Origin: Candidatus Levybacteria bacterium RIFCSPHIGHO2_01_FULL_41_15
Lineage (GTDB): Bacteria > Patescibacteriota > Microgenomatia > Levybacterales > UBA12049
Reading direction: 5' to 3'
Length of the DNA: 64,000 bases
Assembly (NCBI GenBank): GCA_001782165.1
Contig: MFNV01000005.1
Coordinates: 545 to 64,544, forward strand
Under the pieces are notes generated by a model. That model ran no database searches and was not told the DNA's origin. It saw only the letters and a program-made list of their open reading frames with translations. A program made the translations under genes and the position numbers. This document shows, one piece after another, positions 11,323-38,618 of the stretch (position 1 is the stretch's first letter; every line of letters starts with the position of its first letter).

Positions 11323-11886
11323 GTGAAATACATGGAAATAGTAAAAAAAATATATCTTTTTATCATTGACATTGCCCAAACGCTTCTTCTTGCCGCAGCT
11401 GTATTTCTTGTTGTTTATGTGTTTTTGTTTCGCCCTTTTCAAGTAAATGGGGACTCGATGTACCCAAATTTTACTGACAGAGAGTATGTTCTTACCAATA
11501 TAATAGCTCTTAATTTCGCGCCACCTAAAAAAAATGAGGTTGTTGTTTTTAAGGCACCACCAGATCCTGAGAAAGACTTTATAAAACGGGTCATTGCTAT
11601 CCCTCAAGACAAAATATCAATCAAGGATGGAAGTGTTTTTCTAAATGGGGAAAAGCTTGATGAATCAAAATACCTAAAACCAGATGTATTAACATACGCA
11701 GGATCGTTTCTTAAAGAAGGACAGGAAATAACAGTTCCTGAGAACAACTACTTTGTAATGGGTGACAATCGGAATTTCAGCTCTGATTCAAGAGAATGGG
11801 GATTTGTAAAAAGAGAAGATATTATCGGGAAATCTTTTTTCGTCTATTGGCCACCTGATAAAATAGGGATCGTTAAGATTCCTTAG
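11323..11886 (+). CDS. lepB: Signal peptidase I (S26A)
   Basis: GDSMYP contains the catalytic Ser. KRVIA carries the Lys. VMGDNRNFSSDSREWG is box E. An N-terminal TM anchor is present. Confidence 0.85.
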   Translation: MKYMEIVKKIYLFIIDIAQTLLLAAAVFLVVYVFLFRPFQVNGDSMYPNFTDREYVLTNIIALNFAPPKKNEVVVFKAPPDPEKDFIKRVIAIPQDKISIKDGSVFLNGEKLDESKYLKPDVLTYAGSFLKEGQEITVPENNYFVMGDNRNFSSDSREWGFVKREDIIGKSFFVYWPPDKIGIVKIP

Positions 11887-26146: not shown

Positions 26147-27427
26147 CTAGGGCATAAAGGATTTTATAAAATCAATGACCTTTGAAATCATTTTATTAAA
26201 ACGCAGATTTGGTATCTGAGGAACGGATATGCCAAAAGGAAGACCCTGTCTGGGCTCAATTGTCCCTACATATTTGACAAGTCCGACAGCTGTTGCAAAT
26301 GAGGGATCCTCAACTTCATCTATTATTCCTTTAAGATCCGCAGGATAACCTGCTCTTACAGGCATTGCTAAAGTTCTTTTGGCACTCTCAACTACACCAA
26401 TTGTCTTTGCTCCCCCTCCTGTTATCACTATTCCTGAGGGGGTTTGTCCGCCGAAACCGCTTTTTTTGATTTCAAGACCTACGAATGTAAATATTTCATT
26501 AAGCCTTGGTCTTATAATCCCATCGATCAGCGTTTTTTTTGACACTTTGCTTACCTCCTCAGCCAAATGCAGGACAGACAAATCAATTTCATCTCCTCGG
26601 GGTTTTGTTTCGCCTTCTTCACTTTCTTCTCCTGAAGGTTTCTTTGGACTTGAAAGAAAAACTTTTATCTTCTCAGCACTCTCAAGTGAAATTCTAAGTC
26701 CTATGGCAAGATCATTAGTTATGTGTCTTGCTCCGATTCCTATTACGCAAGAGTAGGCAACAGAACCATCGGTATAGATTGAAATATCAGTAGTTCCTGC
26801 CCCGATATCAACAAGAATCACCCCAAGTTCCCTCTCGGTATCTGATAAAACAGAAAGACTACTTGCATACCCGTTGTAAACAATCTCATCTACATCAACG
26901 CCAACTTCAGAGAGAGTTTTCTCAAGGTTTCTTATAGCAATTGTATTGGCAGATATGATGTGTGTGTCAACTTCAAGTCTTATTCCGCTCATGCCTACAG
27001 GATCCTTAATGCCCTCCTGTCCGTCAACTGCATAGGTTCTCGGGAGAACATGAATTATCTCCCGGGATGAGGGAAGAGAAACAGCTTTTGCAGCATCTAT
27101 TACCCGCAGAACATCGTTTTCTGCAATTTCCCCCTGCGGGTTCGACACCGCAACGACTCCTTTTGAGTTTAGCGATTCTATATGGCTTCCTCCAATTGAT
27201 GCAATTGCATGAGAGGCAGAATAGCCTGCCATTCGTTCTGCTGCCTCCAAGGATGTATTTATGGAATTTACCGCCTCATCTATATCAACTATCTGGCCTT
27301 TTTTTATTCCCGCAGATTTTATCTCGGAAATCCCAAGTACATTTACCGAATCATCAACTTTTGCAATTATTGTGGCGATTTTGGATGTTCCTATATCGAT
27401 CCCTACGACTATTTTCCCCTCATTCAT
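26147..27427 (-). CDS. ftsA: Cell division protein FtsA (actin-like ATPase)
   Basis: VGIDIGTSKI and DIGAGTTD are phosphate-binding motifs. Gene order is ftsA-ftsZ. Confidence 0.9.
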   Translation of the reverse strand: MNEGKIVVGIDIGTSKIATIIAKVDDSVNVLGISEIKSAGIKKGQIVDIDEAVNSINTSLEAAERMAGYSASHAIASIGGSHIESLNSKGVVAVSNPQGEIAENDVLRVIDAAKAVSLPSSREIIHVLPRTYAVDGQEGIKDPVGMSGIRLEVDTHIISANTIAIRNLEKTLSEVGVDVDEIVYNGYASSLSVLSDTERELGVILVDIGAGTTDISIYTDGSVAYSCVIGIGARHITNDLAIGLRISLESAEKIKVFLSSPKKPSGEESEEGETKPRGDEIDLSVLHLAEEVSKVSKKTLIDGIIRPRLNEIFTFVGLEIKKSGFGGQTPSGIVITGGGAKTIGVVESAKRTLAMPVRAGYPADLKGIIDEVEDPSFATAVGLVKYVGTIEPRQGLPFGISVPQIPNLRFNKMISKVIDFIKSFMP

Positions 27428-27436
27428 AAAACTAAA

Positions 27437-27841
27437 TTAAAGCCTCAAGATAGGCCTATCAAATCTGAAATCAACTGTTTTTATTCTTTTCCCCTCTATT
27501 GTAAGCCGATTAAGCATTAATTGTAAAGAGTTTATTTGTTCTTGAATATCTTTTTTTTTGGATATTATAGCTTGTCCTCCATCTCTCAGATCCACCAAGT
27601 ATGAAGAATCCGAAGCCACCGAAACAGAAGAATAAGGAATATTCTCTTTTCTTAAGATTTCCTCAATTGATTTATTCCCTGAGATTTGATCTTTTGCAAG
27701 AGGGCTTATCAAATCCTTTGAAAAAAATGGAAAGCGGTAAAGATTCATGATTAAAAGACCAAAAAATAAAGCCGCAAATAAATAAAATACCAGTATCTTA
27801 AGAAAAATTTTTCCTTTTCTCTTTATTTTTTTTCTATGCAT
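27437..27841 (-). CDS. ftsQ: Short FtsQ/DivIB-like cell division protein
   Basis: N-terminal TM plus a small extracytoplasmic domain. Its position between murG and ftsA is conserved. Confidence 0.5.
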   Translation of the reverse strand: MHRKKIKRKGKIFLKILVFYLFAALFFGLLIMNLYRFPFFSKDLISPLAKDQISGNKSIEEILRKENIPYSSVSVASDSSYLVDLRDGGQAIISKKKDIQEQINSLQLMLNRLTIEGKRIKTVDFRFDRPILRL

Positions 27842-28935
27842 TTCTCGATTATTTTTACAATTTTTTGCGCAGCATGCTCGTCTATAAAACCTCTTGTATT
27901 AGCATTCTTATGTTGATCTATATTCTTAAACATTTCGGTTACTTTTTCAAAAAGAAGTTTTGGAGTAGCTTTTTTTTGCTCAATTATCTCAGAAAGTCCT
28001 ATATCTTTAAGAAACTTGGCATTTTCCATTTGTTCGTTTATTTGGGAAAAGGGAATAGGTATCAGAATGGAAGGTTTTTTAAACAAAATAAGCTCAGAAA
28101 CTGTATTTATTCCGGATCGGGAGATTACTAAATCAGAGTCGAAGAGGTAATCCCCCATCTCCTGAGGGTCTATAAATTTTTTGATAAAATAGTCCTTCCT
28201 AAAACTTTTGGGAAGTTTCGATACAATGGTCTTGAGATTTGCATAATCTCTAAATTCCTCAGAATCTCCTGTTTGATGAATAATTAAGAATTTTTCAAGT
28301 AGTTTTTCCAACGAATCTTCTATAAGTTTGTTTATAAAATGAGACCCTGAGCTTCCGCCTGTTATAAAAATCAAGGGTTTTGTGTTTCCATTTTTCACTT
28401 TTCGTTTTTGACTTTCCGCTTTACTTACGAGCTCCTTTCGAAGAGGAATTCCGGTAAGAATAGTTTTTTGTTTTGGAAAAAAATCAAAAGAGCTCCTCCA
28501 GGATATACAAATCTTTTTGGCAAAAAAAGCGCAAAGTTTATTGGAAAGACCTATTTTTCTAGTCTGTTCATGTAATACAACGGGAATTTTAAGAAAAAAT
28601 GCTGCAAAAACGACTGGTATCTGAACATAACCACCAAAACCCAAAACTGCATCTGGTTTGTGTTCTTTCAAAATTGAATAAGCCTTAAAAAAAGCACCGG
28701 GAAGTTTAAGGAGTGAGGGAATCGTATTTTTTGTAAACTTTCTTTGGAGCCTTCCTGTTAAAATTTCTTCAAAAAGAATTCCAAGGTTTTTTATGGTTTT
28801 ATATTCTGGGGATAAAGTCTTATCTTTTTCAAAAACATATTTTCGGCCGATAAAAATAATTTCCCAGTTCTTGGGAGCTTGTCCAATCAGAGAAAGAGCT
28901 GGAGAAAGGTGTCCTCCTATAAAAGCTATCTTCAT
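27823..28935 (-). CDS. murG: UDP-GlcNAc:undecaprenyl-PP-MurNAc-pentapeptide GlcNAc transferase MurG
   Basis: MKIAFIGGHLSPALSLI and ITGGSSGS are the GT28 signatures. Confidence 0.85.
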   Translation of the reverse strand: MKIAFIGGHLSPALSLIGQAPKNWEIIFIGRKYVFEKDKTLSPEYKTIKNLGILFEEILTGRLQRKFTKNTIPSLLKLPGAFFKAYSILKEHKPDAVLGFGGYVQIPVVFAAFFLKIPVVLHEQTRKIGLSNKLCAFFAKKICISWRSSFDFFPKQKTILTGIPLRKELVSKAESQKRKVKNGNTKPLIFITGGSSGSHFINKLIEDSLEKLLEKFLIIHQTGDSEEFRDYANLKTIVSKLPKSFRKDYFIKKFIDPQEMGDYLFDSDLVISRSGINTVSELILFKKPSILIPIPFSQINEQMENAKFLKDIGLSEIIEQKKATPKLLFEKVTEMFKNIDQHKNANTRGFIDEHAAQKIVKIIEKCIEKK

Positions 28936-30002
28936 AAAGTATGTTTTGAAATATTAAGAAGTATTCCTATTGCCGACAAATCTACTATCAGAGACGATCC
29001 TCCGTAGGAAATAAACGGAAGGGGAATCCCGGTAAGAGGCACCAGGACTGTTTGGGCAGAAAGATTAATTATGGTTTGGACAGAAAGAAAAGTTATTATC
29101 CCGCCTCCCAGAAGTTTTCCAAAATTATCTTTTGTCTTCACCGCTATCAGAAATCCCCTCCACATAACAAAAGCGAAAACAAGAACTATCAAGGTTGCGC
29201 CTATAAAACCGGTTTCCTCGGCAATTATTGCAAAAATTGAGTCTGTGGTTGTTTCGGGAAGATACGCATATTTCTGGATAGAATTGCCAAGACCAACTCC
29301 AAAAAAACCGCCCGAGCCAAGAGCAATAAGAATTTGTTTGACATGATAAGAAGAGGTTTCCGCAGATTGGTTAAAATCCAAAAATGTCTTAAGCCTTTCA
29401 TACCGATAAGGTGATATCTTTATAAAAATAAGAGAAATGATAACAGTAACTGGAATACCTGCAGCAAAATAAAGAAGGTTTCCTCCTGAAAGAAAATAAA
29501 CAATAAGCGCCTCGGAAAGAATTACTAGGGAGGATCCCATATCAGGCTGAAGAATAACAAGAAAGAGAATTAGCCCCACAAGAAGAACAAATGCAGGAAA
29601 CCTCCCTCTTTCTTTATGAGAAAACCAAGAGGCAAGATAGATAGAAAGGGCAAGCTTAGCAAATTCAACCGGCTGGATTATAAAAAGTCTGGCATCTATC
29701 CATCTTTTTGCCCCAAGGGCGTGAACTCCTATTCCCGGAATAAAAACTAAAATAAGAAATACCAAGGCAGAAATAAGAATCGGAAGAGAAAGATTGTAAA
29801 GCTTGCGATAATCAAAATAAGTAAAAAATGTAAGTAAGCCAAATCCGATTGCCACCCAAAAGATCTGTCCTTTTACATAATGAAACTTATCCTGAAAATC
29901 ACGAAAAGCAACATACGAAGAAACATCATATATCATGAAAAGTCCGAAAAGTGTTAAAAATACTACAGAACAAAGAAGGGCAAAGTCGATCTTCCTCATC
30001 TT
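28932..30002 (-). CDS. ftsW: SEDS protein FtsW (lipid II flippase/polymerase family)
   Basis: LPFISYGGSSL and ETTTDSIFAIIAEETGFIGA. dcw context between mraY and murG. Internal ATG start chosen (MRKIDFALL). Confidence 0.8.
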   Translation of the reverse strand, partial: KMRKIDFALLCSVVFLTLFGLFMIYDVSSYVAFRDFQDKFHYVKGQIFWVAIGFGLLTFFTYFDYRKLYNLSLPILISALVFLILVFIPGIGVHALGAKRWIDARLFIIQPVEFAKLALSIYLASWFSHKERGRFPAFVLLVGLILFLVILQPDMGSSLVILSEALIVYFLSGGNLLYFAAGIPVTVIISLIFIKISPYRYERLKTFLDFNQSAETSSYHVKQILIALGSGGFFGVGLGNSIQKYAYLPETTTDSIFAIIAEETGFIGATLIVLVFAFVMWRGFLIAVKTKDNFGKLLGGGIITFLSVQTIINLSAQTVLVPLTGIPLPFISYGGSSLIVDLSAIGILLNISKHTL

Positions 30003-31006
30003 ATGAAGGCGATGTAAAGACCTACAATCGCAAAGAAAAATCCCAAAAGCCATGCTCTCATTACAATCTTGGGCTCATCCCATCCTATTTTTTGAAGATA
30101 AAGATGAAAAGGCGCAACAGGCAGGATTTTTCTGCCAAGAAATCTTTTTCCCAATATCTGAACAAGGGATGACCCTACTTCAATTACAAATACTCCTCCT
30201 ATAAAAGCAAGCACGATAACTTTACCGGTCAAAAGGCCTATTACGGCAAGTCCGGCACCCAAAGAAAGCGACCCAACATCTCCAAGCCAAATCCTTGCCT
30301 TGTAGATATTAAAATAAAGAAAAGAGGCAACGCTCCCCATAAGAACTGCAATAAAAACCCGAAGAGACTGATCAAGCTGATTTTCAGATATTGCCAAAAA
30401 AGCGCCAAGACATATAAGAAGAAGACCCGAGGATAGACCATCCAGACCGTCTGCTATATTAAAAGCATTTGCGAAAGAAACGATAACAAATGCGGCAAAA
30501 GGAATAAAGAGAAGTCCAAGACTAGCCAGTCCTATTCCTCTTATAAAAAGGAAGTCATATCCTAGCTGATAATAAAGAACAGAAGCAATAATAAAGGCAA
30601 GTATCCATTGGATAAGGAATTTGTATCTGAAGCGAAGGCCGAAGAAAGATAATTTCTTGCCGTTCACAAGTTTTTTAAAATCATCATAAAACCCAAGAAG
30701 ACCAAAGGAAATAAAAGTAAAAAGAAGAACAAATACTTCCCATCCGTTGACTTGCGCATTAAAAAGTCCGTAAGCCCAAAGGGAAAGCACAATGGTAACA
30801 ATAACTATCAGAAGTCCCCCTCCAAAGGGAGTCCCCTCCTTCCATGAGTGAAATTTATCAAAATAAGGAGTGGGTTTATCGAAAATATCGACGGTTTTTT
30901 GTTTCTGCCTTCTTATCCTAAGTTTATAAAGAAAATCTATGAAGGGAATTAAAAGTACGAAAGTTATAAACGAGGACAGGATCATAAGCCCTAAGATTTG
31001 TGCCAT
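29996..31006 (-). CDS. mraY: Phospho-N-acetylmuramoyl-pentapeptide transferase MraY
   Basis: FANAFNIADGLDGL and GDVGSLSLG are the PNPT signatures. Confidence 0.85.
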   Translation of the reverse strand: MAQILGLMILSSFITFVLLIPFIDFLYKLRIRRQKQKTVDIFDKPTPYFDKFHSWKEGTPFGGGLLIVIVTIVLSLWAYGLFNAQVNGWEVFVLLFTFISFGLLGFYDDFKKLVNGKKLSFFGLRFRYKFLIQWILAFIIASVLYYQLGYDFLFIRGIGLASLGLLFIPFAAFVIVSFANAFNIADGLDGLSSGLLLICLGAFLAISENQLDQSLRVFIAVLMGSVASFLYFNIYKARIWLGDVGSLSLGAGLAVIGLLTGKVIVLAFIGGVFVIEVGSSLVQILGKRFLGRKILPVAPFHLYLQKIGWDEPKIVMRAWLLGFFFAIVGLYIAFIR

Positions 31007-31325
31007 GGTGTATATTATACAACTCTAAGATAATTTTATCCAAATTTTCATAAGTAGTAGTTTTATCTAGTTTGTCCGTCTTGACACAATAATCCAAATG
31101 CCGTTTAATAGATAAACTGTCGACTGCCCACGACAAAATCTCTGTGTTCTGCCCGCCCGGAGAGATTTTTTAAAAACCAACTTTAAAATACCGGTTTTTG
31201 TAGACAAAGTGTTTCTGACCGCAAACGGAGGAGATATGATTTTCTACTTTACAAATCATTACAAAAATATTCAAAAACCCGCCTAGGTAAATGCGGGTTT
31301 TTTAGTGAAGGGAGGTGAAAATAAA

Positions 31326-32111
31326 ATGTTACATTTAATAAATGGAAAAGTTTTGCTATCAGGAGCAACAATTCTGGCAGCTGCTGCTCTGGTGATCGGC
31401 GCCACATTCGCATTCTTCAGCGATTCCGAAATTTCAGAAGACAACACTTTCATAGCAGGTAGCGTTGATCTAAAAGTTGATGATACAGCATCATATCTTG
31501 GTCAACCAGTTTCGGGAAGCACTTGGAACGAAACAGATTTGACAAATGAAAAGTTTTTTAATTTTAACGACATAAAACCAGGTGATTATGGTGAAAATAC
31601 AATCAGTCTTCATGTAGTTGATAATGATGCATGGGTCTGTGCAACCATTAATAATATGGAGGATGAAGAAAATACATTTCTTCAAACAGAACTCGATACA
31701 CAAAATGACGATGGAGTAGCAAGTGGAGAACTTGCAGAAAACTTAAACTTTTTTGCTTGGGCTGATGATGGTGATAATGTCTGGGAATCAGGCGAATTTC
31801 CATTGTTCTCTAACACAATAGGTCCTGCAAGTGATGTCCTTGATGGGGTAATTTATTCTTTGGCTGACTCAACTACCGATGGTGGGCCATTCATTGAAAG
31901 CCAAACTAAATTCATCGGTTTAGCATGGTGTGCAGGAACTCTGACAAATCCTGGTAACGAATTAGGCAATATGACTGGAAATACTGGCTTGAATTGTGAC
32001 GGTAGCTCTTTGGGGAACGAAGCCCAAACTGATTCTGTTACCGCTGATATTACTTTTACAGCAGTGCAACACAGAAATAACCCAGATTTCAGTTGTCAGT
32101 CACTAGATTAA
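31326..32111 (+). CDS. Secreted TasA/camelysin-like protein with a SipW-cognate class signal peptide
   Basis: N-terminus KVLLSGATILAAAALVIGATFAFFSDSEISEDNTFIAGSVDL matches the SipW-cognate signal consensus (A-x-F-S-D-T/S-E...NTF-T/A-AG-x-x-DL) of TasA/CalY family proteins. It lies immediately upstream of a SipW gene. Confidence 0.6.
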   Translation: MLHLINGKVLLSGATILAAAALVIGATFAFFSDSEISEDNTFIAGSVDLKVDDTASYLGQPVSGSTWNETDLTNEKFFNFNDIKPGDYGENTISLHVVDNDAWVCATINNMEDEENTFLQTELDTQNDDGVASGELAENLNFFAWADDGDNVWESGEFPLFSNTIGPASDVLDGVIYSLADSTTDGGPFIESQTKFIGLAWCAGTLTNPGNELGNMTGNTGLNCDGSSLGNEAQTDSVTADITFTAVQHRNNPDFSCQSLD

Positions 32112-32227
32112 TAGAAAATTTTAAAAGGGTGGGGAAGAAGCGATTTGGAAACTTTCCCGCCCTGGGGACTTAGGCAGATAAAATATTAAATTTTAAAAAT
32201 AAAAAATCAATTCTCTTGGGAGGATTT

Positions 32228-33262
32228 ATGAGGAGTGTATTTAAATTATTAAATATAGTTATAGCAGGAGTGCTCATATTCATAGCGATTGGAGTTGCTT
32301 TTATTGCATTTCCGCAATTTGGAAATCAGGCTTTAATTGTCCGCTCAGGCTCAATGAGTCCCACGATAGATGTTGGATCGGTAGCAGTTATTAAAAAAAC
32401 TGACAGTAATACTTATAAAACAGGAGACGTTATCGCATTCAGATCTGAAAAAAATAAAGAAACAATCACAACTCATAGAGTAGTAGATGCGGTTATTGAA
32501 GGGAATCAAATATTTTATAGAACTCAGGGTGATGCGAATGATGATCCAGATGCAGGACTTGTTAGGCCCGGAAACATTTTGGGAAAAACATACATAGTAA
32601 TTCCTTATGTAGGACAAGTCCTTGCTTTTGCAAAATCAGACATAGGGTTTCCAGCACTCATTATATTTCCGGCAGTTTTTGTAATACTAATTGAAGTTTG
32701 GTCTATCATTAAAGAGGTTCGCAAGAGAAAGGAGCTGAGGGATAGCCTCGGGTTTGTAAATTATGATTTAAAAAGAAGTCATACAAAAAATTTATTTACA
32801 TTAAAATTATTAATTCCCCTTCTTGTTATAAGTCTTTTTATCCCAAGCACATTTGCCTTTTTCAGCGATTCAGAAACATCAACTGGTAACACCTTTACGG
32901 CAGCAGCAAGCTTTCCGCAGACAAGTAACTTATTCGTAAGCAACGGATACACCTGTTCAGGAGGAGCATCAGATACATCTGTCAGCAAAGGTACAGTCAC
33001 AATTGCTAAAACATCCGATCTTAAGATATCCGTTACTTTGGTGGGAACCATTCCAAATACTTCATATGATTTGTGGGTAAACCAAGATCCTGGTGCTTGC
33101 CCACTTTCCTCGCCTACAGTTTCTGGTTTTATCACAACAGATGGAAGCGGAAATGGATCTAATACATTAAATAATCACACGCTAGTTAGTTCTACAATAA
33201 ATTTTTGGGTAAGTATGGTTGGGGGCTCAGATGTATTGCGAAGTGCAGCTGTAAGTTTTTGA
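32228..33262 (+). CDS. sipW: SipW-type (S26B, ER/archaeal-type) signal peptidase I fused to a C-terminal domain that carries its own SipW-cognate signal motif
   Basis: N-terminal half: TM, then SGSMSPTIDVGSVAVIKK...GDVIAF...TTHRVV (catalytic Ser and His of SipW-like peptidases), then a second TM. C-terminal half: LLIPLLVISLFIPSTFAFFSDSETSTGNTFTAAASF, a second copy of the cognate-signal motif, followed by a ~140-aa Ser/Thr/Gly-rich domain. Confidence 0.65.
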   Translation: MRSVFKLLNIVIAGVLIFIAIGVAFIAFPQFGNQALIVRSGSMSPTIDVGSVAVIKKTDSNTYKTGDVIAFRSEKNKETITTHRVVDAVIEGNQIFYRTQGDANDDPDAGLVRPGNILGKTYIVIPYVGQVLAFAKSDIGFPALIIFPAVFVILIEVWSIIKEVRKRKELRDSLGFVNYDLKRSHTKNLFTLKLLIPLLVISLFIPSTFAFFSDSETSTGNTFTAAASFPQTSNLFVSNGYTCSGGASDTSVSKGTVTIAKTSDLKISVTLVGTIPNTSYDLWVNQDPGACPLSSPTVSGFITTDGSGNGSNTLNNHTLVSSTINFWVSMVGGSDVLRSAAVSF

Positions 33263-33263
33263 T

Positions 33264-34322
33264 ATGAAAAAGGGGATTTTGACATTATTATCGTTAATTT
33301 TGATTGTTGCCGTTGTTATCAGTTTCAACGTTTTGGGTTTGTTTGAAAAAAAAACAGTTTATGCCGTAGGAGACTTAACTGTTATTTGGCAGACTGATCC
33401 TTTGTTTAATGAAAGCAATATTCTTCCTGGATTTTCGCAAACTAAAACAGTAAATGTTGCAAATGGCGCTCCAACGCAACGCCCTATTGGTGCTCGCGGA
33501 GATCTTACGTCAGATCCGGGAAACATGGACAGTGTTTTGAATATAGAAATTAAGGAAGGCGCGACTGTTTTATATTCCAATACTCTTGAGAATTTTTTCC
33601 TAGATTCCGCAGGCCCCGATGGCATTCCCCTATCGACTTTAGGATCAGGAGCAAATACCACTTATGATTTCACTGTTACATTTGATGAGGCTTCGGGGAA
33701 TGAGTTTCAAAATCAGACAATAATATTTGATCTTACGATTGGTATTTCTTTTGTTCTGCCAACAACCTGCGAAAATATTAACTTTCCAAATCCACCCATT
33801 TTTGGAACGGCAGGAAACGATAATATTTCAGGAACCGTACGAAACGATTTGATAATCACTTTTGAAGGAGTCGATAGGATTTCATCTGGAGTTGGAAATG
33901 ATTGTATTGTTACCTCTGGCGGAGGAAATGACAAGGTCACAACAGGGGTTGGAAATGACGTAGTTGTAACAACAGATGGAGATGATGATATAAATTCCGG
34001 AGTTGGAAATGACACTATTGATGCAGGAAATGGAAATAATAAAGTTAACGCAGGAGTTGGAAATGACAAGGTCACAACAGGGTCCGGCAGTGATGATATT
34101 CATCTGGGAGTGGGAAACGACAGCGCAAGCGCCGGCGGAGGAAATGACAAAGTGGTGGGAGGAACCGGCAATGACATAGTTGATGGAGAAGAAGGAGATG
34201 ATGATCTTGCGGGAGGGGTAGGAAACGATAATTTAGTGGGAGGATTAGGAGTGGATAAGGTAAATGGAAATATAGGAATAGATACTTGCGATGCCGAATC
34301 GGAAACAAATTGTGAAATATGA
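33264..34322 (+). CDS. Secreted/signal-anchored protein with ~13 tandem RTX-like nonapeptide (beta-roll, Ca-binding type) repeats
   Basis: N-terminal hydrophobic anchor. The C-terminal region is SGVGNDCIV-TSGGGNDKV-TTGVGNDVV... (x-G-x-G-N-D-x-U-x repeated about 13 times). This matches the GGXGXDXUX hemolysin-type calcium-binding repeat. Confidence 0.55.
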   Translation: MKKGILTLLSLILIVAVVISFNVLGLFEKKTVYAVGDLTVIWQTDPLFNESNILPGFSQTKTVNVANGAPTQRPIGARGDLTSDPGNMDSVLNIEIKEGATVLYSNTLENFFLDSAGPDGIPLSTLGSGANTTYDFTVTFDEASGNEFQNQTIIFDLTIGISFVLPTTCENINFPNPPIFGTAGNDNISGTVRNDLIITFEGVDRISSGVGNDCIVTSGGGNDKVTTGVGNDVVVTTDGDDDINSGVGNDTIDAGNGNNKVNAGVGNDKVTTGSGSDDIHLGVGNDSASAGGGNDKVVGGTGNDIVDGEEGDDDLAGGVGNDNLVGGLGVDKVNGNIGIDTCDAESETNCEI

Positions 34323-34390
34323 TTTTAATTAAATGTAAAAGTGGAACCATCCTTCACTAAAGTTTTTGATGGCGAAGGGAGGTGAAAAAA

Positions 34391-34744
34391 ATGGAGGTTA
34401 AAAAGAAAATTGCAGCTGCCATAATTTCAGGTTCTCTTATTGCAGGAGCAATTCTGCCTGTTGCTGCTTTTGCAGATCAGACGTGCACTATAAGAAATAA
34501 CGGCAACAACTCAACAAATAGATGCAGAATAAAGGTTGAAAGAAGAGTTACGGTAGATCAGAGAAATACTGCTACGGTGAGAACCAGAGTTATAGTTGTT
34601 CAAAATACAGGTTTAAATGATGCGAACAACAATACGACAAACGGCGGAGATGTCACTGTTGACACGGGAAACACAACTTCTACAATCACGATAACCGTTT
34701 CCGGAAACACCAATACTGCGGTTCCGCCTGATCCAGGTCCATAG
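34391..34744 (+). CDS. Small secreted Asn/Thr-rich protein carrying one copy of the N/D-rich repeat module
   Basis: Signal peptide (KIAAAIISGSLIAGAILPVAAFA). NNNTTNGGDVTVDTGNTTS matches the NTGGD...TGN core shared with the 35329-39980 proteins. The SD GGGAGGTG precedes the ATG at 34391. Confidence 0.4.
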   Translation: MEVKKKIAAAIISGSLIAGAILPVAAFADQTCTIRNNGNNSTNRCRIKVERRVTVDQRNTATVRTRVIVVQNTGLNDANNNTTNGGDVTVDTGNTTSTITITVSGNTNTAVPPDPGP

Positions 34745-34769: not shown

Positions 34770-34795
34770 CTGCCCCGCTTTTTGCGGGGTAGTTT
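34770..34795. terminator. Bidirectional rho-independent terminator-like hairpin between convergent genes
   Basis: CCCCGC-TTTTT-GCGGGG hairpin with T/A-rich flanks. It is placed between the stop of the 34391 gene (+) and the stop of the sortase gene (-). Confidence 0.45.
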
Positions 34796-35342
34796 ATTCT
34801 GTGGGTTTGGCAAAGACAAGAAGTCTTTGAAGAGATGTTCCTATGGGAACACAGGTCTGAAGTATTAACTGATCTTTCTTATTGTCTAATAAATAATCAA
34901 CCTCATTGGGCCAAACAGTTTTGGTTTCAAAAACCTCATATTGAAAACTTTTGCCGTTTCTTACTATATTAATCCTATCTCCTTTTCTAAGCTCTGGTAA
35001 TCTAAAAAATGCCTTATTATACCTTGTTATTCTCCAGGGAAGATCAGATGAGTGAGCAAATAGAAAGCTCGTTCCTTTTTCTCCCGGCAAAGATGTACCT
35101 TTTGCATGGGCGATCCCTTTCTCGAGTTTTTTCCTGTATTCTTTTTCATTAAATGGATCAACATTCTCCAAAACATTGTATCTGGCTTTGATTTGGGGAA
35201 TTTCGATGTAAAAAGAACTTACTGTTTTTGTTTCATAAGAAGGACTAAGATATAAAGCGATAATCGGATAATAAATGAATGCCAGTAATAAAAGAGAAAA
35301 CGCCATTAAGGCGTTTCCAATAAACTTTCTATATGGTTGCAT
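34794..35342 (-). CDS. Sortase family transpeptidase
   Basis: N-terminal TM anchor. FLFAHSS carries the catalytic His. DQLILQTCVP is the TLxTC catalytic Cys motif, followed by the conserved Arg region. It sits immediately downstream of an LPVTG protein. Confidence 0.7.
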   Translation of the reverse strand: MQPYRKFIGNALMAFSLLLLAFIYYPIIALYLSPSYETKTVSSFYIEIPQIKARYNVLENVDPFNEKEYRKKLEKGIAHAKGTSLPGEKGTSFLFAHSSDLPWRITRYNKAFFRLPELRKGDRINIVRNGKSFQYEVFETKTVWPNEVDYLLDNKKDQLILQTCVPIGTSLQRLLVFAKPTE

Positions 35343-36465
35343 AAAGAGGTGGGGATGGATCTGAACCAAAGCGCAAATACCATCCCGCAAGAAGCATTGT
35401 AAGACACAAAAGTGTCATTAGCAACAGCCAGTAATTACCTGTTACAGGGAGAACTCCTCCGATTGCCGCTCCCAAAACTTGTCCTGCTCCCTCAGAAACT
35501 TTGCCATCTCCGCCTCCTGAAGGAGACGGGGCACCTGGCGGCTGTACCGAAGGTCCTGGCGGACCTCCTGGTCCCGGTCCTGGCCCTCCCCCCGGAGGTG
35601 GAACAATCTCTTTCTCGCAACATAATTTAGCAAAAGATCCGTTAATATCTTCATTACCTATCTCTATGACACTTACAATATCCCCCGTAACAATAAGAAC
35701 TGCTCCGTTATTACCGTCTGCAGTATTTCTTCCCGTATTTGCGTTATTGACAGCATTATTATATATATAGGCAAAATTATTGTTATCATAATTCAAGTTG
35801 TTATCAAGCGAGAAATTGACAGAGTTTATTGACCCGTCGGCATTATTTAAAATACTAATATTTGTAGAATTCTGAGGGAATCCGTATTCAGCAAAACCAA
35901 AATTTATTTTTTTGTTTTTTATTATAGTTGCCAAAGTTATATTTCCGGTATCAATAGCAACATCTCCATTGTTATTGTTAGCCTGATTCTCTCCGGTGTT
36001 TGCATTGTTATATGCATTATTAACAATTACTGCCGAGTTGGACTGCGTAACATCAACATCATTTAAAATATCCAGATTAATACTGTTCGTTGAATCCGAA
36101 CCATTATTTTTTATATCAACAGACGTCTGGGATTCGCATTGCCCGCAAGGATCTTGCGCAAAGTTTGTATTAATATTTTCATTTGTAATTGAAGAGGTGC
36201 TTTCTATGTTTCCTGTGGTAATGTTTGCATCGCCGTTGTTTGAAGAAGTGGAATTTTCTCCCGTATTTGCATTTGTTTCTACATTATTATCTATTTCGGC
36301 ATTATTTGTCTGCTCAACAGTTGATGAAGAAGTATTGTTAATCTGAACATTGTTACTCGATCCTGCGCCGTTATTTGATACGGTAATGTCTTCTGCGAAA
36401 ACACCGGATACTGCAAACAGACCGGCCATCAAAAGTATCAAGGATGAAAATATTTTCCTTATCAT
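35329..36465 (-). CDS. Secreted Asn-rich repeat protein with a Pro/Gly-rich stalk and a C-terminal LPVTG sortase sorting signal
   Basis: Signal peptide MIRKIFSSLILLMAGLFAVSGVFA, with SD GGGGAGGA upstream of the ATG at 36465. Repeat modules as in the neighbouring genes. The C-terminus is PPPGGGPGPGPGGPPGP...GGVLPVTGNYWLLLMTLLCLTMLLAGWYLRFG. This is LPXTG plus a hydrophobic segment plus a basic residue. Confidence 0.6.
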   Translation of the reverse strand: MIRKIFSSLILLMAGLFAVSGVFAEDITVSNNGAGSSNNVQINNTSSSTVEQTNNAEIDNNVETNANTGENSTSSNNGDANITTGNIESTSSITNENINTNFAQDPCGQCESQTSVDIKNNGSDSTNSINLDILNDVDVTQSNSAVIVNNAYNNANTGENQANNNNGDVAIDTGNITLATIIKNKKINFGFAEYGFPQNSTNISILNNADGSINSVNFSLDNNLNYDNNNFAYIYNNAVNNANTGRNTADGNNGAVLIVTGDIVSVIEIGNEDINGSFAKLCCEKEIVPPPGGGPGPGPGGPPGPSVQPPGAPSPSGGGDGKVSEGAGQVLGAAIGGVLPVTGNYWLLLMTLLCLTMLLAGWYLRFGSDPSPPLYATI

Positions 36466-38618
36466 TTGATAATCCTCCCCATAAGTATTAATGCTTTTTT
36501 TCTTAAAATAAATCCTATTCCTAAGACCGGCAGTGCCAAAAACGCCCACGCCAGATTGATATCCACTTTCTTTTTAGAATTATCTTTCTCGGAACTATTT
36601 ACGCCTAACGTTTGGGTGTCTTGAGAATCTTGAGATGGTCCCGAAGCAGCTGCAAAAAGATTTCCGGCAGTCGCACCGGCCAAAACTCCGCCGACAAACG
36701 GAACTGAGTTTCCTGAAATTGCGGAATTTCCCGATCCTCCTCCCCCACCCGGAGAAGAAGATGGAGGATTAGAATCATTGCTTGGTAAACTTTCCGACTG
36801 AGGTGGCCCTCCTACCCCCGCTATATTATCATCATTGTCTTTTTGTGCTCCGGGTGTTACAAAATCCCCCATCCAGCTTCCGAAAACATTTACGAAAGTA
36901 ACGAGAAGTCTTCCTCCTACAATATTGTTGTTTACAAAATTAACTAAGTTTACAATTACTTTTGCATCCCCTGTTGTAATGTAACTGTCTCCTCCAGTAT
37001 TGTCATTTGCCGAATTTTTCCCTGTATTTGCTGATAAATATATATTGTTATTTACATCTGCATTATTTGTCTGATCTATGTGCTCTTTTGTACTTTGATA
37101 AACTTTTGCATCGTTGGTTGACTCGGAACCATTATTTGAATTAATTGCCGTTATTTCTCCATTTTCATCAACTGCAAATTCTGTTCCCTGTGATCCTGCA
37201 AACATTGCACCCTGTGGCGCTCCTACAATCTGCCCTATCCACTGCCCAGCTCTATTTATAATTACAAGCCACCAATTCCCGCCGACTATATTATTGTTTA
37301 CTATGTTTAATACCTGCGCAGTTACATCGGCATTCCCCGTTGTTATATAACTATCCCCGCCTGTATTTCCGGATGCTGAGTTTCCGCCCGTGTTTGCGGT
37401 CAATATCAGATTATTATCTATATCCGCAACATTTACTTGGTTAATTGTATCTATAACTATTTGATCCGAAGAAACATTATTGTCAGAATTTGAACCGTTT
37501 CCAGAGTTTATCAAAGTAGTGTCCCCTCCGCATGTCGCGCAAGCAAATGCAGATAGAGCCGACTCAGAAAGAATAATGTCTCCAATTAAGTCTCCGAAGA
37601 TATTAACAACCCCAAGTATTACATTTCCGGCAAGGTTATTATTTAAAAGTGTCAGAACATTTCCTGTAACTGATGCATCACCTGTTGTGACATATGAATC
37701 CCCACCTGTGTTACCTGACGCAGCGTTGTCTCCCGAGTCAGCCGTTAAGTAAAGATCATTGTTAACTGTACCATTATTAGCTTGATTCGTTGTGTTAGTG
37801 GTGTCTGAGTTTATAGTGGCATCATTATCAGAATTAGAACCATTATTGGAGTTTTGAGCAAGACCTGTAAATCCGTCGCATCCCGATACGCAACCGGCTC
37901 CAAAATCAAGTATGTAATCACCGGTGTGATCATCTACTATGTTAAACTCCGCGACTGTAACCCCATCGATGTTCGTATTGGCGGAGGTTATTATAGTCCC
38001 CGTTGTTGAAGCATCTCCCGTATTGATAAAGGAATCCCCTACATTATCAGACGCTGAATTTTGCCCTGAAACACTTGCTCCCGTAAGTCCATTTTGAATA
38101 CCCGCACTGTTTGATTGATCAGTTGTGCTGGTATCGGTAACTGTTGCAGAACTAGTGTTCGTGGATCCCGAACCATTTCCATCATTTACTATTCCGATTC
38201 CACCACTGGCGCAGCAGTCATCATTCCCTGCAAGATTTGAATTAGCAGTGGTGAAAATATTTCCATCACTATTTGCATCTCCGGTATCTATAAATGTGTC
38301 TCCAACATTACCATCTGATGATGTACCCCTGGAAACATCTGCCTCAGGATTACCTTCAGTGGATACGACGGGGTCATCCGGATTGCTATCGCTTTCCGGA
38401 ATTTCAGGAATTTCTTCCACCTCATTATTGCTACTGTTTTCCTCGGGTTGTTGCGGAGCTTCCTCAGGCACAGTTGCTGGGATTTCTTCGGTTTCATTTA
38501 TCTCCTCAACCTCCGCCGCTTCCGGGGCTTCAGAAGCCTCTGCAAAAACAGAAGAAGCTCCACCTAAGACAAGGTACAGTACCAAAAATATTGCCAGTAG
38601 TTTCCTTAAATTACTCAT
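36462..38618 (-). CDS. Large secreted protein (718 aa) built from repeated N/D/G/S-rich modules, with a C-terminal hydrophobic segment
   Basis: Signal peptide, then an acidic Glu/Pro-rich linker. Then come about 5 modules of type NGSNSDN...V.Q.N.A.V.N...L.A.TG.N.A.GNTGGDSY.TTG.A.V, each followed by a short hydrophobic stretch. The end is LAWAFLALPVLGIGFILRKKA. Confidence 0.55.
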   Translation of the reverse strand: MSNLRKLLAIFLVLYLVLGGASSVFAEASEAPEAAEVEEINETEEIPATVPEEAPQQPEENSSNNEVEEIPEIPESDSNPDDPVVSTEGNPEADVSRGTSSDGNVGDTFIDTGDANSDGNIFTTANSNLAGNDDCCASGGIGIVNDGNGSGSTNTSSATVTDTSTTDQSNSAGIQNGLTGASVSGQNSASDNVGDSFINTGDASTTGTIITSANTNIDGVTVAEFNIVDDHTGDYILDFGAGCVSGCDGFTGLAQNSNNGSNSDNDATINSDTTNTTNQANNGTVNNDLYLTADSGDNAASGNTGGDSYVTTGDASVTGNVLTLLNNNLAGNVILGVVNIFGDLIGDIILSESALSAFACATCGGDTTLINSGNGSNSDNNVSSDQIVIDTINQVNVADIDNNLILTANTGGNSASGNTGGDSYITTGNADVTAQVLNIVNNNIVGGNWWLVIINRAGQWIGQIVGAPQGAMFAGSQGTEFAVDENGEITAINSNNGSESTNDAKVYQSTKEHIDQTNNADVNNNIYLSANTGKNSANDNTGGDSYITTGDAKVIVNLVNFVNNNIVGGRLLVTFVNVFGSWMGDFVTPGAQKDNDDNIAGVGGPPQSESLPSNDSNPPSSSPGGGGGSGNSAISGNSVPFVGGVLAGATAGNLFAAASGPSQDSQDTQTLGVNSSEKDNSKKKVDINLAWAFLALPVLGIGFILRKKALILMGRIIK

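Follow-up and report, generated by a model that had tools for sequence, protein, structure and literature searches.

Why would a signal peptidase carry, in the same polypeptide chain, a module that looks like one of its own substrates? This question is raised by one open reading frame (ORF) in a 64,000-nucleotide (nt) stretch of a Candidatus Levybacteria genome (Patescibacteriota; contig MFNV01000005.1), which as a whole is called the window in the following. In this ORF a SipW-like signal peptidase continues into an internal SipW-type signal peptide, a short motif resembling the donor strand of TasA-type fibres and a further folded domain, which we call the cargo. The explanation that we favour, with a probability of roughly 0.55, is by analogy with Bacillus subtilis: the peptidase would cut its own tail between Ala210 and Phe211 and thus release a TapA-like module that would form the initiator or the tip of a TasA-type fibre.

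In B. subtilis TasA polymerises by its mature N-terminal strand, which enters the next subunit. TapA has only this donor strand in common with TasA (AFHDI versus AFNDI). Its immunoglobulin (Ig) fold is complete and cannot accept a strand, and TapA is thought to start the filament by giving the first strand. TapA residues 44-57 are enough for biofilm formation (PMC9674648, PMC10151520).

A SipW-like peptidase continues into a third hydrophobic segment

The fused ORF runs uninterrupted from an ATG at 32228 to a TGA at 33260-33262 on the + strand, with a Shine-Dalgarno sequence (GGAGG, 32219-32223) located 5 nt upstream of the ATG. Within 32228-32272 (+) the public JGI call of this gene (P0001, 330 amino acids (aa)) begins instead at GTG codon 15. 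The longer start at the ATG is more likely, since homologues have SGSM at residue 40 and a ribosome-binding site precedes the ATG. The coordinates of all parts are given in Table 1.

Residues 11-157 match the NCBIfam model TIGR02228 (sigpep_I_arch) with 108.9 bits at a cutoff of 51.85. The N-terminal half is thus a signal peptidase I of the endoplasmic reticulum (ER)/archaeal type (S26B), similar to SipW and SEC11, with a predicted cleavage activity. The hallmark strings on which a first-pass annotation of the sequence had relied are all found (SGSMSPT at residues 40-46, GDVIAF at 66-71 and THRVV at 82-86). In a sequence search of solved structures, human SEC11A and SEC11C aligned across the SGSM, HRV and GDxN..D segment. 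S42, H83 and D108 correspond to SGSM, HRV and GDNN..DD of these proteins, i.e. to a Ser-His(-Asp) arrangement and not to the Ser-Lys dyad of LepB. In an alignment with 59 homologues (60 sequences) His83, Asp102 and Asp108 are invariant. Ser42 is kept in at least 90% of the sequences; the exceptions are N-terminally truncated gene calls, and a few homologues that seemingly lack the catalytic Ser are gene calls ending at contig ends. The earlier worry that a proper alignment might leave this half without its catalytic Ser and His is thereby removed. The equivalog model of Bacillus SipW (NF046067) scores 114.4 bits, which is below its cutoff of 190; the peptidase is SipW-like, but it is not a SipW equivalog. 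Since an ordinary signal peptidase I of the LepB type is encoded in the window as well (11323-11886, +; TIGR02227, 164.5 bits), the SipW-like enzyme is presumably an additional, dedicated peptidase beside the LepB type of general secretion.

Hydropathy and the AlphaFold2 (AF2) model agree on three hydrophobic segments (residues ~5-27, 140-164 and 189-210). The first two are the transmembrane (TM) helices that flank the peptidase half, in line with the first-pass annotation. Judged from hydropathy and charge, TM1 would cross the membrane from inside to outside, the catalytic domain would lie outside, and TM2 would lead back to a basic cytoplasmic loop. The stretch EVRKRKELRDSLGFVNYDLKRSHTKNLF (residues 163-190), which includes this loop, holds 8 K/R versus 4 D/E; the loop itself is modelled with low AF2 confidence. 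A catalytic domain on the outside implies a cytoplasmic loop, such that the third helix would cross from inside to outside, in the orientation of a signal peptide. By the same hydropathy and charge data this helix would be the SipW-type signal peptide of the substrate. As had been noted before, there is no start codon at the junction: residues 118-271 are free of in-frame ATG, GTG and TTG.

Table 1. Positions of the fused ORF, its parts, the adjacent genes and the split loci (window coordinates, except for the split loci, which are numbered on their own contigs).
Feature	Position (nt)	Strand	Residues	Remarks
Whole fused ORF	32228..33262	+	344 aa plus stop	SipW-type peptidase, internal signal peptide, donor-strand motif, beta-sandwich cargo (modelled)
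TM1, N-terminal peptidase anchor	32240..32308	+	5-27	hydropathy; AF2 helix 2-27
Catalytic domain, predicted extracytoplasmic	32309..32638	+	28-137	
Catalytic-domain residues	32351-32353; 32474-32476; 32531-32533; 32549-32551	+	Ser42; His83; Asp102; Asp108	
TM2, the C-terminal anchor of a normal SipW	32645..32719	+	140-164	hydropathy; AF2 helix 140-172
Basic loop, predicted cytoplasmic, RKRKELRDSLGFVNYDLKRSHTKN	32720..32791	+	165-188	also n-region of the internal signal peptide
Internal SipW-type signal peptide, h- and c-regions, LFTLKLLIPLLVISLFIPSTFA	32792..32857	+	189-210	TIGR04088 at residues 200-226
Donor-strand-like motif FFSDSETSTGNTFTAAASF	32858..32914	+	211-229	near copy of the mature N-terminus of the upstream TasA homologue
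C-terminal cargo domain	32915..33259	+	230-344	8-strand beta-sandwich (modelled), two conserved Cys, unannotated family
Upstream TasA homologue	31305..32111	+	268 aa	N-terminal SipW-cognate signal; TIGR04088 23.3 bits; PF12389 match at N-terminus
Gene X	33264..34322	+	352 aa	signal/anchor helix, TasA-like core without donor strand, RTX calcium-binding repeats; 1 nt after the fusion stop
Split loci	L067 3438-4495; L068 975-2032; L069 815-1932			uncultured low-GC contigs

The internal signal peptide and its predicted cleavage site

The NCBIfam model for SipW-cognate signals, TIGR04088 (cognate_SipW), matches the internal residues 200-226 with 22.8 bits (cutoff 19). A hidden Markov model (HMM) of the junction region scores this site at E = 3.6e-24, and at least 113 independent homologues have kept the motif, such that the match is far beyond chance. 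In the fusion the motif lies internally, ~190 residues from the start and on the same polypeptide as the SipW-type peptidase; N-terminal it is only in the split relatives described below. It is also nearly a copy of the corresponding region of the upstream TasA-like gene, with 14 of 21 positions identical (STFAFFSDSETSTGNTFTAAA versus ATFAFFSDSEISEDNTFIAGS), which bears out the earlier observation of a repeated motif.

The third helix ends with P-S-T-F-A(210) and is followed by the donor-strand-like motif. Cleavage is predicted after Ala210 (T-F-A↓F-F). A cleavage-site logo built on 113 fused homologues has A in 102 and S in 9 sequences at position -1, T/A/S/G in 111/113 at position -3, and Pro or Gly in 82/113 at position -5. 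Pro is found 10 times at P2' and never at P1'. Most residues at P2 and P2' are aromatic. TasA has the same feature (TWA↓AF), and there the aromatics around the cut make the protein a poor LepB substrate and a SipW substrate. The cleavage-site rules are kept among sequences that are 32-67% identical to the query. Because the -1/-3/-5 rules and the exclusion of Pro from P1' hold over this range, the internal signal peptide looks cleavable and under selection. The first-pass annotation had placed the cut further downstream, after AFFSDSE. The -3/-1 rule, homology to TasA and the family logo make this position unlikely and point to TFA(210)↓FF(211); on the logo and the TasA precedent it was rejected in favour of A210↓F211.

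Behind the predicted cut the fusions conserve D at +3, S at +7, N at +10, F at +12, A at +14 and F at +18. Through +14 their motif equals that of the stand-alone neighbours and then departs from it: the fusions continue with AAxxFP, and the TasA-like proteins with AGxIDLxI, which is the first strand of their core. An end of the shared motif at +14 implies that the donor strand alone is common to the fusions and the TasA-like proteins, as it is for TapA and TasA. In the AF2 monomer of the fusion the donor motif is disordered, with a predicted local distance difference test (pLDDT) score below 50 at residues 214-224, and the same stretch is disordered in the model of the TasA homologue.

The cargo domain behind the donor strand

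Structure prediction had been suggested to reveal whether the C-terminal domain is TasA-like. It is not: the model corresponds to a sandwich like those of Cu/Zn superoxide dismutase (SOD) and Ig domains, it does not have the TasA jelly-roll core, and no TasA entry was among its matches. The family is unannotated and has no Pfam model. The domain contains one His only and is devoid of the metal-binding histidines; it is thus no dismutase. Members of the cargo family (P0121-P0200) apparently come from diverse sources. The N-terminus of one of them, P0139, matches camelysin (PF12389) weakly and below the threshold. A weak similarity to the cargo domain is also seen in the TasA-like gene on L067 (2390-3355).

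A database search provided 252 relatives of the fused protein, and the counts given here rest on the best 120. Of these, 71/120 carry a lamin-tail domain (PF00932) behind the motif, 3 carry RTX repeats and a few have other domains. In about a fifth the donor strand is followed only by a Pro/Thr tail of 20-60 aa. Such tail-only fusions have genuine stops within long contigs (L005, L006, L008, L011) and have a parallel in TapA, of which residues 44-57 are sufficient for a biofilm to form. The peptidase of the query is closest (70%) to those of P0010 and P0014, both of which have a lamin-tail cargo, and P0002, with the most similar cargo (82%), has a peptidase that is just 63% identical. For the split module of L069, described below, the cargo is 66% and the neighbouring peptidase 40% identical. 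This disagreement between the histories of cargo and peptidase suggests that the site behind the donor strand behaves as an exchangeable cassette, while peptidase, signal and donor strand stay constant.

The module thus consists of a SipW-type signal, a local copy of the donor strand and then an unrelated complete domain or almost nothing, which is the logic of TapA. In particular, the donor strand is common to the module and the major subunit, and the cargo is a separate complete sandwich or absent. The earlier suggestion of a minor fibre subunit or cap fits such a TapA-like module that offers a donor strand only.

Fused and split forms

The fusion is real and not a mis-merge of two genes, which the first-pass annotation had already considered unlikely. 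The homologues P0002-P0009, from independent assemblies, are likewise encoded by one continuous ORF; they are 52-66% identical to the query and cover 100% of it. In all of the best 120 relatives except for P0069, P0119 and P0120 (~190 aa), the third helix and the motif come after the peptidase. Species-representative genomes were also scanned, which revealed 28 Patescibacteria loci, and wherever the gene is complete it is fused (27/27). These loci are labelled Levybacteria, Curtissbacteria, Microgenomates, Andersenbacteria, Saccharibacteria or Patescibacteria, and several third-party annotation (TPA) bins are labelled 'Gammaproteobacteria'. The TPA bins named 'uncultured Gammaproteobacteria' that have the Patescibacteria-type operon are L003, L007, L009, L010, L013-L015, L017 and L019-L021; their labels are probably wrong. 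In the Actinomycetota loci of the same scan the peptidase ORF is unfused, and 8 of them have a separate motif-bearing ORF just downstream. In five Actinomycetota loci (L053, L056, L057, L059, L064) the SipW-like domain lies at the C-terminal end of stop-to-stop ORFs of ~680-770 aa, which could be stop-free high-GC stretches or a different, N-terminal fusion. Among the homologues, the loop that links TM2 to the signal shows little conservation, with lengths from ~10 to >100 aa.

Searching with the cargo domain yielded 82 representative clusters. Of these, 17 are peptidase fusions, most others are proteins of ~150 aa with ordinary signal peptides, and two (P0127 and P0121) represent a split form of the present gene. 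The split loci L067/L068 and L069 contain a SipW-like gene of 188-190 aa, whose product ends after TM2, and, with a 4-nt ATGA overlap, a gene of 164-182 aa. The product of the latter starts with a SipW-type signal, which is followed by the donor motif and the same cargo domain (51-66% identity). A TasA-like gene lies upstream, and the gene order is that of the window. The downstream gene is an RTX gene like X in L069, and in L067 it combines an X-like N-terminal region with a lamin-tail domain; the arrangement of L067 was found again in a second sample. By its sequence, the module of the split state is plainly a secreted SipW substrate. The proposal that the C-terminal part of the fusion is a true SipW-type substrate module is supported by these loci, where it is a separate gene with its own N-terminal signal right after an unfused sipW. 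A comparison of fusions with split pairs, also suggested earlier, thus finds both states, separated by a small change at the overlap. The fusion probably arose through loss of the ATGA stop/start overlap seen in the split relatives, and it would be tolerated because signal-peptide cleavage restores two proteins. Scans for Rfam families, tRNAs, promoters and terminators added nothing to the fusion finding.

Neighbouring genes

The upstream gene encodes a TasA homologue, identified by profile and by fold. While a search of the PDB sequences with the protein alone found nothing, its family profile matches only TasA in the PDB (5of1, fibre 8aur; E = 2.5e-5). The AF2 model, which was built with database homologues (pLDDT 84.9), has the TasA fibre 8aur as its sole significant Foldseek match in the PDB (E = 1.3e-4), with modest TM-scores of 0.39 and 0.43. 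The predicted mature N-terminus (FFSDSEISEDNTF...) begins at nt 31413. The whole protein is 100% identical to P0201, which is encoded in a metagenome-assembled genome of Candidatus Levybacteria.

Downstream of the fusion follows gene X, in which HemolysinCabind matches cover 7 stretches. The family of its N-terminal domain aligns with the TasA-like family (hhalign probability 95%, E = 3.5e-8); the alignment starts past the donor-strand region and the RTX repeats come after it. The core of X begins where a donor strand would end (YA|VGDLTV versus FIAGSVDLKV in the TasA homologue). A profile of X against the PDB gave no significant match. In at least 22 Patescibacteria loci X is the next gene after the fusion, and the operon order of TasA-like subunit, fusion and a TasA-like core X without donor strand is conserved. 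X may be an acceptor-only terminator or anchor of the fibre.

Just past the stop of the TasA-like gene the spacer contains a stem-loop (32126-32163, +) with a GC-rich 12-bp stem (GGGUGGGGAAGA...UUUCCCGCCC) and no U-tract. It might limit read-through into the fusion from the gene of the major subunit. Over the entire spacer the z-score of folding is only -1.46. On the opposite strand, division and cell-wall genes lie immediately upstream of the fibre operon (26147-31006, -; ftsA, a 134-aa unmatched ORF, murG, ftsW, mraY). Further downstream, 34794-38618 (-) encodes a sortase (198 aa), a 406-aa protein ending in LPVTG and a TM helix, and a 718-aa protein. The 406-aa and 718-aa proteins consist of Asn/Thr/Gly-rich repeats and have no family match. 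Homologues of these repeat proteins occur near the fusion operon in L002, L004 and L005, and homologues of the sortase in L002 and L005. A 120-aa protein (34382-34744, +) resembles one such repeat unit, and the fusions P0074 and P0076 carry an Asn/Thr-rich cargo that looks similar by eye to the repeat proteins.

Possible explanations of the fusion

The observed architecture, catalytic residues, conservation, operon order, split relatives and folds are what an explanation has to accommodate. We infer cleavage, either in cis or in trans, fibre formation and a role of the released module as primer or tip. The peptidase would cut after Thr-Phe-Ala210, on its own chain or on a neighbouring copy. 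The products would be a membrane enzyme with three TM helices and a secreted module; the latter would begin with FFSDSETSTGNTF, a copy of the donor strand of the upstream TasA homologue. By analogy with TapA, the released module, having a donor strand and no acceptor groove, could insert its strand into the first TasA-like subunit and in this way nucleate a donor-strand-exchange fibre. It would stay at the starting, probably distal, end and place the variable cargo there: an Ig/SOD-like domain in the present case, and a lamin-tail domain, RTX repeats or a Pro/Thr tail elsewhere. The downstream protein X, with a groove and no donor strand, would end or anchor the fibre. The fusion would fix enzyme and primer at a ratio of 1:1 and in the same place.

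Several points weigh against this explanation. Cleavage is a prediction from sequence, and the TasA homologues of Patescibacteria are presumed fibre formers. The C-terminal domain has no detectable homology to TapA. AF2 gives the third segment as a 24-residue helix (190-213), which could be a stable TM anchor. At P1' and P2' the fusions vary more (FP, LQ, VM, QY) than the stand-alone TasA-like proteins, which almost always have FF; this may reflect weaker or different constraints. Finally, covariation of the donor motif between fusions and their neighbours is weak, with on average 10.9 versus 10.4 identities per 21 positions (29 pairs; 366/5000 permutations reach the observed value).

The continuous helix (190-213) would be expected if the fusion were an uncleaved anchor or platform. 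The third helix would then be a permanent TM segment and the tethered donor strand would capture the first or last TasA-like subunit, such that the fibre is tied to the cell and to its processing peptidase and the cargo is displayed on a Pro/Thr stalk. The Pro/Thr-rich linker behind the motif of many members is indeed typical of wall-spanning stalks, and TapA was reported to co-localise with the membrane and was termed an anchoring protein. We nevertheless consider this arrangement unlikely, though well worth keeping in mind. The -3/-1/-5 rules and the absence of Pro at P1' are as strongly kept as in the secreted neighbours, and the hydrophobic core comprises only ~12-15 residues and is broken by Lys and Pro (LFTLKLLIPLLVISLFIP), which is closer to the h-region of a signal than to a TM span. 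Split relatives use the equivalent segment as an ordinary N-terminal signal peptide, and if the donor strand began right at the membrane, steric hindrance would make its insertion into a subunit difficult. Given cleavage, the fusion might still be neutral. A point or frameshift change would have erased the ATGA overlap, cleavage would restore the products, and the gain would be translational coupling at most. The split forms with their 4-nt overlap and identical gene order agree with this, as does the poor conservation of the loop between TM2 and signal (~10 to >100 aa). A merely neutral state is hard to reconcile, however, with fusion in each of the 27 Patescibacteria loci that are complete and in at least 113 of the 120 homologues, over several candidate phyla and down to ~32% peptidase identity. 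Moreover, the fused state persists while the cargo is swapped. This wide retention and the persistence through cargo swaps suggest that the linkage itself is kept by selection, and we regard neutrality as improbable.

The internal signal could also act as a pseudo-substrate that fills the active site, with the enzyme inactive until a first self-cleavage and the cargo being incidental. Nothing specific supports an inhibition of this kind, and the donor-strand residues behind the cut are conserved although a mere plug would not need them, so that such a zymogen appears very improbable. Practically negligible is a joining of two genes by a sequencing frameshift or mis-assembly. The fused and split states are indeed only a small change apart, but otherwise no support was found. 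The same continuous ORF is seen in independent assemblies from JGI, ENA, NCBI and Logan, and the identical protein P0001 sits on a 355 kb contig. An artefact was therefore rejected.

The favoured explanation, self-cleavage with release of a TapA-like module, can be extended to a self-priming fibre machine. Each peptidase molecule would bring along a single copy of its first substrate. One cut in cis would mature the enzyme and free the donor-strand primer right where the TasA-like subunits emerge, each enzyme would give rise to one fibre with a swappable cargo tip, and X would close and anchor it. We consider this full scheme speculative and rather doubtful. If it were true, cargo would be exchanged between Patescibacteria lineages, possibly for attachment to different hosts or surfaces.

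Coupling an enzyme to an assembly primer through a covalent join of signal peptidase and substrate is unusual. If the proposed cleavage is correct, it offers a testable model for the start and stop of TasA-type donor-strand fibres, a question that extends to B. subtilis. The locus also hints at an operon for a surface fibre that is conserved in Patescibacteria and would bear on their cell-surface biology and host attachment. Diversity of the surface could be explained by the cargo cassette, which could also be put to use for display. As the protein is small and needs no partner in the chain, its cleavage can be tested in E. coli or B. subtilis.

Comparison with known systems

In public databases the fusions are called 'signal peptidase I', and a full-text literature search found no description of the peptidase-substrate architecture. 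The closest parallels can be drawn to the tapA-sipW-tasA operon of B. subtilis. Both systems encode together a dedicated ER-type Ser-His signal peptidase, TIGR04088-type signals with aromatics around the cut, a major subunit homologous to TasA, and a minor protein that combines a donor strand common to the major subunit with a complete beta-sandwich of non-TasA type. What differs from B. subtilis is that the TapA-like module is here translated in one chain with the peptidase, after a third membrane helix. By sequence the folded domain of the module is not related to TapA, and among the relatives it is variable or missing. A third protein follows, which is TasA-like, has RTX repeats and has no donor strand. 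The split loci L067/L068 and L069 have the same order of TasA-like gene, sipW, signal with donor strand and cargo, and X, but the peptidase and the module are two genes. Similarly, in Actinomycetota loci a motif-bearing gene directly follows an unfused sipW.

An involvement of a signal-peptidase homologue in fibre assembly has another example in Streptococcus pyogenes SipA/LepA (PDB 4n31), which, going by the entry title, we take to be essential for pilus polymerisation. SipA is not known to have the catalytic residues and serves sortase-built pili. Unlike SipA, the present protein retains Ser, His and Asp and belongs to a TasA-type locus.

Donor-strand assembly of a TasA-like subunit is also found in AbpA of Pyrobaculum calidifontis, for which AbpB was proposed as an initiator that gives the first strand and may carry adhesin domains (PMC9245690). 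In contrast to the present locus, AbpA and AbpB come without an encoded dedicated peptidase and without a fusion. TasA homologues in Patescibacteria were noted in the same work, without a description of the fusion architecture (PMC9245690). A more distant analogy are chaperone-usher pili, which likewise are polar donor-strand fibres with special subunits at start and end, one of which has an adhesin domain (FimH as tip adhesin, PapH as terminator). The proteins are unrelated, however; the tip subunit of these pili has a groove and no strand, i.e. the opposite polarity, and a chaperone and an usher are needed. Overall, a system of the tapA-sipW-tasA type is known, and the new element of the present locus is the fusion of the TapA-like part to the peptidase.

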